From the IMG/VR virus record IMGVR_UViG_2734482780_000013, positions 1 through 13,028 of that record: a stretch of DNA of 13,028 bases, one strand, 5' to 3'. A program made the position numbers. How positions within the stretch are numbered: position 1 is the stretch's first letter; every line of letters begins with the position of its first letter. Source of the stretch: a virus. Its lineage: Duplodnaviria > Heunggongvirae > Uroviricota > Caudoviricetes. Positions 3,001 to 6,000 of this stretch are shown here, piece by piece.

Positions 3001-6000
3001 GGAAGTGCCAAAGCCATCTGAGCTTTAATTTTTGGGTCTGCCAGAAGTCCGGCCAGAGTTGTTGGTTTCTCATTATGATGTGCAACTTGGTTACCGGTAG
3101 CCGCTGCCTTAAGTGCATTGATAGACATTTTTTCTCCTTACTTCATTCTGAAGACGCGTTGTGTCGTTGTTGTTTTGAATTTTTCGAATAACTCAGGGTG
3201 TACTGACTGGAATAGCTTCTGGTCGAATCTGTTGCTGATCTGAGATTTCCATGTGCAGAGCGGCTTTCCGTCCAGGGTCAGGACTGAGTGCTCTTGCATG
3301 TACATCTTCAGCTTCTCTTCTGATATAGCTATTTCTTCTTCCAGTGATTTTCTGCGTGACTTCATGTCTCGTAGATCGTTGAATAGTGCGAGTGCCTTTC
3401 CGTCAGCCTCGATACTTGTCCCGGCCTCTTTCTCAAACATCAGCGATACATCGCTTACGCTGGTAGCTTCCGGCGGGTTAAGATTTTTCACTCGGTCCCA
3501 GAAAGCGATTTCTTTTTCTAAGATCGCCTGGATAGTTTCTTCATCACGCTCAACCCGATAGATTCGGAAGTCGTCGCCACCGATAAGCACACCGAAAACG
3601 CATACCTGTTTGTTTGTAACCATCAACCCGTGCATGGCCTGGGCCGTGTAATGCACAGGAATTGCATCTGTCTGGATTTCTCCCCATTCTTTGGCTTTGA
3701 ACGGACTAACTGTTTTTATCTCAATGTTCTCGCCTGACGCTGCTTCTGCATCGATCTCAGCTGCAATAAAATCGTAATCACGGTGGATATAGCGGTTTCC
3801 GCGATGAACGATTTCCATCCCTGTTTCCTCAGAAAGCAGGTCTATTACGTATGGCTCCATACGCTGGCCACGCGTGAAAACTTTCTGCTTGCTTGGGTCT
3901 ACTGGTTTGACACGTGGCTGGACCTTATCCAGATAAACCTCAAGCGGGGTGCGCCATGGGCTAATTCCAAGAATCCCTGCAACATCGCTTCCTCCGATGT
4001 ATTTTGTTCTATCCATGATTCCAGCGTTCCGCATCATGCCGCGTCCCTCTGCCCATCAAGCTGATCAGCCAGATCCCAGCGGGCGATAATTGCCATTGCC
4101 TCGCGCCGGTAGGCATCCATTAGTTCTTCGAACTCAGGGCTGTCTTTAGCGGCCTCCAGTACTTCCTGGCGAACACCTTTGCCTGTTACAACGTCGAAAG
4201 TTGAGGCCAGTTGATGAAGCCGGATACTCTCAATCAGTTCAACTTGTCGGTCATATAGCTGTTCTGACAGGCGGTAGTCCTTGTCGAATGCCAGCATGAT
4301 TTTTTGAAGATTTTTCTGCTGATTAACGTTCATTATCAGCCCTCCCATATCTCGTTATCGTTGGCCACATCGCGAGCTTCTTTGCTGACGAAAGCCCACT
4401 TAATGCCTTCCTGTAAGGTGCGGAACTTCCAGCTCATGAATCCGCATGCAGTAACGCAGTACCAACCGTTGATGATTTTCCACTGCATAATTTGTTACCT
4501 CGGTCTGTTACCGTTGAGGTAATGATTATGCGTATTTGGTTTGATGTCAATAGATATGAGTTAAAAAAATTACCCGCCAGGTAATCGTATAGGCAATAAA
4601 AAAGCCGCCAGAAGGCGGCTTACTTACTGAAAAATATGATTTTATTGTTTGTTTTTTTCGTTCTGGTTGATGACAAATTCAATGTAACTTTCGATCTTTG
4701 CTTTCTCGGTTTCGGGTAACAATGCGTAGCGCGAGCGGTCATAGTTGATGGTCGCAGGGTCGTGCGGGTGAATCAGTAATTCATAGCCATGACGCCCGAA
4801 TGCGGATGCAACATTCTCCAGGGTGGAAATGGAAACGCTGACCTCATTGTTTAACAGGCGGCTGATTGTCACCTGGGCGACGCCGGATGCGCGGTGAAGT
4901 TTTCCCTGTGTTGAAAGGTCGCGGCTTTCGCTCATCCAGCGTTCCAGGTTGTGAGCCGCCAGCTGACCAATGTCGCTTGGGCCGACAGGCTGAAAACCTT
5001 CCTGAGAAAGCGAGCGATCGATATCAAGCCAGTTACGGGGTTTATTGGCGGCAGCTTCAATTTTTCGCGCAACCTGGTCGCCGATAACCTTCTTGCCAAG
5101 AGCCCAGCGGTTTACCAGATTTGCCTGAGTTCCAAGTTTTTCTGCCATCCGCGTCTGAACACCATTGAATTCACGGTCGATCAAGTCGTTGAGATTTTGC
5201 CTGCGGACGTCCTGGATACTTTTCATTTTCTGGAAAATCGCCTCATATATGAATCAGTAGATGATTCAATTTAAAGCAATATTACCCAACAGGTAAATGC
5301 ACCTCATAGGTAACTACCCTTGATTTTTGTTACCTTATGGGTGAATATTTATTATCTGAAATAAATATCAGGCAATAGCTATGAGCGATAACGGACATTT
5401 CGATTTCAAAAAGCACTGGCTTGCACTCACTCCGGATGAGCGTGAAGCCTTCGCACAGGAAGCCGGAACGACGAGTCACTATATCCAGACTCACTTAACA
5501 GGTAAGCGAAAAATGCCAGGTAAAGTATTGATGAATGGGCTTTTTAAAGCCTGTAAAACAAGACAATGGCTGCGCTCAAAAGCAGAACTGGCATACTTCT
5601 TCTACTCATGATATCCAGCTACAACCCTCTGTAGACCGCCACCCGGCGGTCTTTTCATATCTATTCGTACCTCAAAGGTAATAAAAAACCAAATCTGGTT
5701 GATCTTTTTTTTGTGTCAGCACAAAATAACCGTAATCCCAATACTAATAACAGGGCTTACCATGGAAATCATTACACGTATTGATGCCGCAAAGCGCGGA
5801 CTTAAACGCTACTACACCGGAAAACCATGTAAGCACGGACATGACAGTGAACGCTGGGTTTACAACGGACACTGTGTTGAGTGCACCATGGAATCAAACC
5901 GTCGTATCAGGGCAGAGATTAAGCAGATCATGATTAATTCCTCCCCACAACATTCAAGCTGATAGCGGAGATTAATCATGAGCAGACATGCAACAGATTG

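Follow-up and report, generated by a model that had tools for sequence, protein, structure and literature searches.

In phage lambda, the first gene after cro and its terminator, ahead of the replication genes, encodes CII, a helix-turn-helix (HTH) tetramer that activates the leftward establishment promoters via repeats at their -35 regions, and whose turnover depends on FtsH. Small zinc-binding proteins with regulatory roles are also well described in phages, such as the late activators Ogr of P2 and Delta of P4, or Com of Mu, which activates the translation of the overlapping mom gene; these have CCCC ligand patterns. Here we analyze a small gene encoding a putative zinc finger that sits just downstream of a Cro-like gene in a Caudoviricetes sequence of 13,028 nucleotides (nt), the IMG/VR record IMGVR_UViG_2734482780_000013, positions 1 to 13,028, which we refer to as the window. 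Within its genus the gene is commonplace, and catalogues already list it as hypothetical. We propose, with a probability of somewhat more than one half (about 0.55), that its product is an early repressor-controlled DNA-binding protein, and that it is a free-standing copy of a nuclease-associated CHCC zinc module.

The gene and its ribosome binding site are placed as follows.

5762 to 5962, plus strand: zinc-finger open reading frame (ORF), with a match to phrog_1081 (E 7.7e-43), the same slot in relatives, and purifying selection.
5752 to 5755, plus strand: Shine-Dalgarno-like AGGG, 6 nt before the ATG.

The ORF encodes MEIITRIDAAKRGLKRYYTGKPCKHGHDSERWVYNGHCVECTMESNRRIRAEIKQIMINSSPQHSS, 66 amino acids (aa) plus stop, with an isoelectric point of 9.45 and 12 lysines and arginines. 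An alignment of the intergenic regions of nine phages has a purine-rich block with an invariant G at the Shine-Dalgarno position. The RefSeq form of the protein is also 66 aa (WP_000402894.1, E. coli MS20653), the identical protein is found on at least 1000 contigs, each time labelled "hypothetical protein", and 541 of 5426 complete E. coli genomes carry the 831-bp region that includes the gene. We estimated the ratio of nonsynonymous to synonymous substitutions (dN/dS) by the Nei-Gojobori method. The closer orthologue pairs in the ε15-like genus have dN/dS of 0.03-0.09, with dN around 0.13 and dS around 1.7 or more, near saturation; pairs across the two zinc-finger subtypes have dN/dS of 0.19-0.45 where it is measurable, and otherwise a saturated dS. 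Judged by these comparisons, 5762..5962 is a translated gene under purifying selection, rather than a chance ORF or a decaying relic. The original prediction, made from this sequence without database searches, had proposed a 66-aa ORF with a reasonable Shine-Dalgarno sequence, and in this it was right.

A mechanical list of ORFs also gives an 87-aa version that starts from a TTG at 5699. We reject it because its extension covers a block that is conserved as DNA, and because the RefSeq protein is the shorter one, of 66 aa. The block under the 21 additional codons is non-coding, intergenic and not conserved as protein, and the homologues do not have the extension.

The cysteines and histidines lie within residues 21-41 of the protein, KPCKHGHDSERWVYNGHCVEC. 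The original prediction had read here the pattern C-x-H-x-H followed by C-x-x-C. That spacing is exact, and the question is which of those residues are ligands. We looked at conservation at two depths, among orthologues and among 334 full-length copies of the same module. These copies come from a total of 391 module instances that were extracted from the best 149 proteins of 16,441 profile matches. C23, H27, C38 and C41 are each 100% conserved in the 334 copies, and they are also invariant in alignments A2 and A5. In the orthologue alignment, the invariant positions are C23, G26, H27, C38 and C41, while H25 changes to R or Y. In the module copies, the H25 column has H in 28%, R in 22%, N in 18%, and also K, and the H37 column has G, T, A or S, so that it is not conserved. 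Because the four residues are conserved throughout and H25 and H37 are not, the predicted ligand set is C-x3-H-x10-C-x2-C, and not one built on C-x-H-x-H. The expectation that the Cys/His residues would be conserved in homologues is thus borne out for four of the six, and fails for H25 and H37. Zinc binding by the 66-aa protein is predicted at these four residues.

5828 to 5884, plus strand: predicted zinc-binding core, with codons C23 at 5828-5830, H27 at 5840-5842, C38 at 5873-5875, and C41 at 5882-5884.

Outside of the ligands, other near-invariant positions are R6, A9, G13, Y17, F/Y18, T19, G20, G26 and R31, and the basic residues R6, K15/R16, K21, K24 and R31 are conserved.

An AlphaFold2 model calculated with a 19-sequence orthologue alignment has a mean predicted local distance difference test (pLDDT) of 90.5. 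It consists of a helix (residues 6-11), two strands (16-18 and 30-32), and a long helix (39-60, with pLDDT of 94-96). C23 and H27 are on the hairpin loop between the two strands, and C38 and C41 are on the first turn of the long helix.

5876 to 5941, plus strand: long C-terminal helix of the AlphaFold2 model, residues 39-60, rich in R and K (columns 41-48).

A treble clef has one pair of ligands on a hairpin or knuckle, with the other pair in the first turn of a helix. Because two ligands of the model are on the hairpin loop and two are at the N-terminus of the helix, the fold appears treble-clef-like, as read from the DSSP secondary-structure string of the model. Of the two folds that had been suggested, zinc ribbon or treble clef, the secondary structure of the model fits the second; a zinc ribbon does not fit it, as the second ligand pair is at the start of a helix and not on a hairpin knuckle. 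Structure searches of the PDB with the model produced no significant match. In the relatives with several copies of the module, the helix 39-60 continues as the basic linker from one module to the next.

At the level of families, the protein has a full-length match to phrog_1081 (residues 1-66 on profile positions 1-66 of 67), which is annotated as "unknown function". Its orthologues are ε15 gp40, phiV10 p42, SPN1S_0045 and Tyrion gp42, with 66-71 aa, 52-98% identity, and the same slot in the genome; further orthologues in the same slot are found in BUCT554, Kp4865-1, ST11-OXA245phi3.2, and a metagenomic Enterobacterales contig. The hosts of the phages with an intact ORF in this slot are E. 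coli, Salmonella, Enterobacter and Klebsiella. In TL-2011b, there is an unannotated third allele of the gene at about 3501-3701, with a TTG start and around 62% identity, which overlaps the start of the initiator. The Cro-like gene ahead of this allele encodes exactly the same protein as its counterpart in the window, which places a mosaic boundary in the intergenic region between the two genes.

Named families give very little. A Pfam scan of the 66-aa protein down to E<=1 has only a sub-threshold match to YneP (E 0.097), with no match to Phage_CII or any HTH family, to Ogr_Delta or Com, to HNH, or to NUMOD1-4, AP2 and the other named DNA-binding modules; these last are also absent among the Pfam families hit by 103 relatives with multiple copies of the module. 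The NCBIfam scan has no match, TraR/DksA is found neither by Pfam nor by NCBIfam, and a PADLOC scan has no hit for the protein. Searching the PDB by sequence, either with the single protein or with a 47-sequence profile of the module, results in 0 hits at E<=10. In the literature, we found no paper on the ε15 gp40-type protein or its module; the ShiLan HNH paper concerns CxxC fingers, which are different from this module.

It is when we look for the module, as opposed to the protein, that the family becomes very large. A profile search of 1.84 billion cluster representatives (clusters at 50% identity, cut-off E<=1e-3) matches the module in 16,441 protein clusters. Among these library hits, the best have 150-540 aa and 2-5 matched stretches per protein. 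The 391 instances extracted from 149 of these proteins amount to 2-4 copies in all of them but one; by profile, the number of copies per protein is 1-4, and by regular expression their spacing is mostly 45-80 residues. No Pfam model covers the module itself in the 103 multi-copy proteins that we scanned. What Pfam does find in those 103 are nuclease domains: HNH in 24, HNH_5 in 22, HNH_4 in 10, and Endonuclease_7 in 10, where the counts overlap. An HNH regular expression matches 56 of the 149 module proteins, about 40% of the module proteins that were checked also have HNH or endonuclease VII signatures, and the C-terminus of alignment A3 is the HNH consensus DH..P....G.....N........N..K. Similarly, a Foldseek search against predicted viral structures (BFVD) finds homologues named GIY-YIG group I intron endonuclease, endonuclease VII, and HNH nuclease.

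As examples, JenP1 gp33 and Vibrio phage 1.074.O gp42 are both a module followed by phrog_1035 "endonuclease VII", and the UniRef name of the former is "Homing endonuclease". Vibrio phage 1.074.O gp42 sits ahead of replication genes, and in PS15B-6, PS-1 and phiRSP the module heads genes beside the terminase genes. JenP1 gp33, at 3001-3489 of the JenP1 sequence (L005), lies between a GTP cyclohydrolase gene and a queuine tRNA-ribosyltransferase-like gene, in the 7-deazaguanine DNA-modification cluster of Nonagvirus phages.

His-Me finger nucleases are intrinsically non-specific, and obtain their specificity from appended DNA-binding modules (PMC5714182); the same classification paper has no description of the zinc module. 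All of this points to a nuclease-associated DNA-binding module, with a conserved basic and aromatic surface that would contact DNA, and the 66-aa protein most likely binds DNA. The module family is very widespread yet unnamed, without a Pfam, NCBIfam or PDB counterpart. We also considered whether the protein of the window could itself be an HNH or His-Me finger nuclease. We rejected this identity, given that the protein has no Pfam HNH hit and that, looking for a catalytic Asn or His, we found no conserved polar residue beyond C41 in the 334 copies.

The position of the gene is conserved too. In nine genomes, the order is the repressor, the Cro-like gene, an intergenic region of about 145-150 bp, the zinc-finger gene, and the replication genes. 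These are the neighboring genes in the window.

4642 to 5226, minus strand: prophage repressor with two HTH domains (HTH_3, E 1.2e-9).
5381 to 5611, plus strand: Cro-like gene (phrog_35 "transcriptional repressor", E 5.6e-13), beside the zinc-finger gene in all relatives.
5978 to 6090, plus strand: start of a replication initiator gene, ~38 codons long (phrog_1032, E 1.6e-19, aligned to positions 1-42 of a profile of 281).

The Cro-like gene upstream had been correctly recognized in the original prediction. On the other hand, its lambdoid frame does not hold, as the element is a Uetakevirus prophage, and nor does the view that a zinc finger is unusual for the slot, since this gene follows the Cro-like gene in 9/9 genomes examined. 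The nine also share a terminator, an operator-like site and a promoter-like element ahead of the gene, and the initiator comes directly after it or, in ε15, after a cytosine methylase. The slot is kept with four unrelated types of initiator downstream. The stop of the zinc-finger gene overlaps the next start in ε15, Tyrion, BUCT554, TL-2011b and L020, and overlaps or nearly abuts it in most relatives; in the window, the initiator starts 15 nt past the zinc-finger stop.

The layout of the 145-150 bp spacer between the Cro-like gene and the zinc-finger gene is the same in the nine phages, with coding regions that are saturated at synonymous sites. In the window, it has the following elements.

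5633 to 5656, plus strand: intrinsic-terminator-like hairpin of 8 bp, 6 of them G-C, plus TTTT.
5667 to 5681, plus strand: repressor-operator-like site GTACCTCAAAGGTAA, which matches (T)TACC-N5-GGTAA(T).
5689 to 5700, plus strand: element CCAAATCTGGTT, an imperfect palindrome with a nearly invariant CCA.AT..GGTT that abuts the putative -35.
5699 to 5727, plus strand: promoter-like element, with -35 TTGATC at 5699-5704, a 17-nt spacer, and -10 CAAAAT at 5722-5727.

The hairpin is called terminator-like by a scan, its phiV10 counterpart is annotated as a putative rho-independent terminator, and its GGCGG arm is conserved in the nine phages. The site GTACCTCAAAGGTAA matches the ATTACC-N5-GGTAAT sites annotated as 'protein_bind repressor' in ε15, with CC...GGTAAT invariant in the nine. 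This motif has 9 strand matches in the window, where 0.23 are expected, and all are in the immunity region, around the repressor gene and at 5667-5681.

5282 to 5296, 5301 to 5313, and 5330 to 5344, no strand assigned: three operator-like sites from the repressor to the Cro-like gene, by motif match.

Further sites in the window are at 4508-4522 and 4570-4584. In phiV10, there are 23 strand matches versus 0.6 expected, all intergenic, and they head nearly every transcription unit (terS, p06, p24/p25, lysis, int, PL, PR, p42 and p45); the ε15 GenBank record already annotates some of these operator sites. The distribution of the motif suggests that a single repressor silences each transcription unit directly.

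As for the promoter-like element, TTGATC and AAAAT are invariant in the nine phages, with a spacer of 16-17 nt, and TTGATC-N17-CAAAAT resembles the promoter region before the Cro-like gene, which has a TTGATT. It is plausibly a sigma-70 promoter, with a predicted start about 28 nt before the ATG. The -35 includes an invariant GATC at 5701-5704, a Dam site, in all nine phages, and Dam methylation or SeqA might influence this promoter.

The element next to the -35 is part of an invariant CCA.AT..GGTTGATC at 5689-5704 in the nine-phage alignment. A related ATAT(G/A)TGGTT followed by T/A recurs 7-45 nt downstream of an operator, before several transcription units of phiV10 and ε15. It is found at 5689-5700 and 9870-9879 in the window, the latter preceding a holin-like ORF, at 3309, 20922, 24740, 33136 and 35117 in phiV10 (L022), and at 2991, 24754 and 33755 in ε15 (L023). 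It may serve as a promoter element, or be bound by a second regulator. We also asked if the variants of CCA.AT..GGTT co-vary with the zinc-finger subtype. This is not supported, as Kp4865-1, of subtype A, carries ATACGGTT, otherwise seen with subtype B.

In phiV10, terminators are annotated on both sides of p42-p43-p44, one of them right after p44. The zinc-finger gene would then open an early unit that is under repressor control and whose later cistrons encode replication proteins. The Rfam search of 5000-6300 reports only a chance miRNA match (E 0.64), and therefore no known RNA element in the intergenic region.

Our proposal can now be stated in full. The protein would be one free CHCC module of about 45-60 residues, with a short helix, a beta-hairpin that carries C23 and H27, and C38-x2-C41 capping a long basic helix. 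Elsewhere, the same module is used singly or in tandem before the HNH, endonuclease VII or GIY-YIG domains of homing-type endonucleases. In ε15/phiV10-type phages, a single module without a nuclease has become the fixed opening gene of the transcription unit for replication. Upstream, this unit is bounded by the terminator that follows the Cro-like gene; it appears to have a promoter of its own, immediately preceded by a repressor operator, and the gene is often translationally coupled to the next one. The protein would be silent in the lysogen, made at once on infection or induction, and would bind phage or host DNA as an early regulator or accessory factor. We infer the zinc binding and DNA binding of the protein, and the promoter activity and repressor control of the gene.

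Several observations weigh against this proposal. The promoter-like element has 8/12 positions of the consensus, and a simple promoter scan misses it. The type of zinc finger has a Spearman correlation of 0.31 with the type of initiator, and of 0.69 with the type of repressor, which is loose, and involves 8 genomes that are not phylogenetically independent. Co-variation being weak in one case and loose in the other, no partner or target is indicated. Finally, about half of the multi-copy proteins have no recognizable nuclease domain, and therefore "nuclease-associated" does not describe the whole family.

The same numbers bear on a more specific partnership. With four unrelated initiator types behind the same zinc-finger types, and a Spearman of 0.31, we rejected the idea of a dedicated partner of the replication initiator. 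The covariation is only suggestive, arguing against such a partner and leaving room for an early regulatory or a host-directed role. A bolder version of our proposal, in which the zinc finger is an early regulator domesticated from the targeting module of a homing endonuclease, and binds CCA(A/T)AT(G/A)TGGTT specifically in order to set the timing of expression or the lysis-lysogeny outcome, is a long shot. In this version, the motif would be the target that sits beside the operator before the zinc-finger gene and before other units (virion, tail fibre, lysis, and other early genes).

The host-directed role deserves to be considered in its own right. The zinc module could be a scaffold for contacting a host replication, transcription or defence protein, in the way in which small early phage proteins often act, and both the conservation of the slot whatever initiator follows, and the many module arrays without a recognizable nuclease, would fit. 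We think it unlikely all the same, given that there is no PADLOC hit, and that the residues shared with the nuclease-fused copies form a basic and aromatic surface (R6, K/R15-16, Y17, F/Y18, R31), which points to a ligand common to all contexts, most simply nucleic acid. The cII-like association made in the original prediction leads to another alternative, an establishment activator with a different fold that binds near a leftward promoter past the Cro-like gene, and turns on the repressor and the integrase. The gene is indeed the first one beyond cro and a terminator, the early region has no other recognizable establishment regulator, and the sequence type tracks the repressor (0.69) better than the initiator (0.31). 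There is even a leftward sigma-70-like site, 5635->5608 on the minus strand (TCTACA-16-TATCAT, 9/12), which shares sequence with the terminator and with the stop codon of the Cro-like gene; like lambda PRE, it would direct antisense transcription across that gene in the direction of the repressor. That site, however, is not conserved in the ε15 group, it falls where the intergenic alignment is least conserved, and the scan that reports it finds 2 sites where shuffled sequences give 1.8. In addition, TL-2011b has an identical Cro-like protein and a 99% identical repressor, but a zinc-finger protein that is only 62% identical. The relatives of the module are mainly fused to nucleases, several of them without lysogeny genes in their local context (the Nonagvirus deazaguanine cluster, the terminase-adjacent genes), so that the module is not tied to lysogeny. 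Without any similarity to Phage_CII or HTH proteins, the association comes down to position, and we regard such an activator as quite improbable.

An RNA-binding regulator of the translation of the downstream gene, similar to Mu Com, is suggested by the small size of this zinc protein and by its stop, which overlaps or abuts the next start codon in most relatives; moreover, the next gene in ε15 is a DNA methyltransferase. But the downstream gene varies among four initiator types or a methylase, such that no common RNA target is apparent, the partners of the module are DNA nucleases, and there is no hit to the Com family in Pfam. We give this alternative little credence. Hardly any is left for the idea that a homing endonuclease gene lost its nuclease domain and persists as a relic without function. 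It is true that the closest non-orthologous relatives are module-plus-nuclease genes at scattered sites, like homing endonuclease genes. A relic would not be expected to have dN/dS values as low as the 0.03-0.09 of the closer pairs, whose synonymous sites are nearly saturated, an intact ORF in the same slot across phages of E. coli, Salmonella, Enterobacter and Klebsiella, or a conserved ribosome binding site and upstream promoter-like block. An early DNA-binding protein made of one free module is the reading that we prefer.

The window itself is an ε15/phiV10-type (Uetakevirus) prophage remnant integrated next to guaA, with yfgI and yfgH at its right end. Its repressor is a homologue of the ε15 gp38 / SPC32H Rep type, for which the ε15 annotation cites PDB 5d50. 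The early genes on the minus strand include an MT-A70 methylase, a DGQHR/DndB-like gene, RecT, and a YqaJ-type exonuclease. The DGQHR-domain/DndB-like gene (836-1939, minus strand; PADLOC DndB, E 1.5e-37) lies in the early-left arm beside the MT-A70 methyltransferase (192-965, minus strand), and it is present in only some related prophages; those of MS20653 and AST205 do not have it.

The initiator is cut by a deletion at about 6090, and the similarity to intact prophages ends at 6087-6090. After this junction come the tail-spike, acyltransferase, holin, endolysin and spanin genes. The junction, at about 6087-6104, fuses codon ~38 of the initiator to the ribosome binding site and start of the tail spike (GGAGATTGAACATG, ATG at 6102). 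The deletion removes the replication, packaging and virion genes, and brings the tail spike and acyltransferase close behind the early promoter region. An independent remnant in E. coli AST205 has lost DNA in a similar way, from the replication protein P to the tail-fibre gene. The acyltransferase (8645-9781, plus strand, 378 aa) follows the tail spike, whereas phiV10 and the AST205 remnant have their O-acetyltransferase genes on the opposite strand, and the body of the tail spike (834 aa in the window) differs from those relatives; therefore, the serotype-conversion/receptor module has been exchanged.

Little changes for the window locus itself, and the interest is in the size and the anonymity of the module family. 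Defining the module would help to annotate homing endonucleases better, as well as thousands of "hypothetical" proteins of phages. If each copy of the module reads a few base pairs, it would be a modular DNA-recognition unit of interest; and if it is true that the zinc finger is the missing early regulator, the family of ~16,000 clusters would constitute a new class of DNA-recognition units, arranged in tandem and programmable in appearance. The zinc-finger gene is also a candidate in the early regulatory circuit of ε15, phiV10 and SPN1S, which has an unusual layout, with one repressor operator before nearly every transcription unit.

How does this locus compare, then, with known systems? With respect to ε15 gp40, phiV10 p42, SPN1S_0045 and Tyrion gp42, nothing of substance differs, other than the downstream initiator being destroyed by the deletion in the window. 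With lambda CII, only the map position is alike. CII is an HTH tetramer, whereas this protein is a zinc module without an HTH; we found no CII-type promoter near its gene; and while cII depends on N-mediated read-through from PR, the zinc-finger gene seems to have its own operator-flanked promoter. P2 Ogr, P4 Delta and Mu Com are alike in being zinc-binding phage proteins of ~60-70 aa with regulatory roles, but their ligand pattern, gene position and partners differ from those of the protein in the window, which has no Pfam match to their families at E<=1. The treble clefs with a basic recognition helix, of the GATA type or of nuclear receptors, appear to have a similar ligand layout, as read from the secondary-structure string only, and with no significant PDB match. 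There is also a likeness to the named nuclease-associated modules (NUMODs, AP2, the I-TevI finger), in that the module is small, single or in tandem, and fused in phage proteins to HNH, endonuclease VII or GIY-YIG domains, an architecture that PMC5714182 describes for such modules. The protein in the window differs from these in that it has no sequence match to them, has C-x3-H-x10-C-x2-C as ligands, and stands alone, with no nuclease attached, as a fixed early gene. We thus describe it as a zinc finger that is predicted to bind DNA and to work like the named nuclease-associated DNA-binding modules, without being a member of them by sequence.

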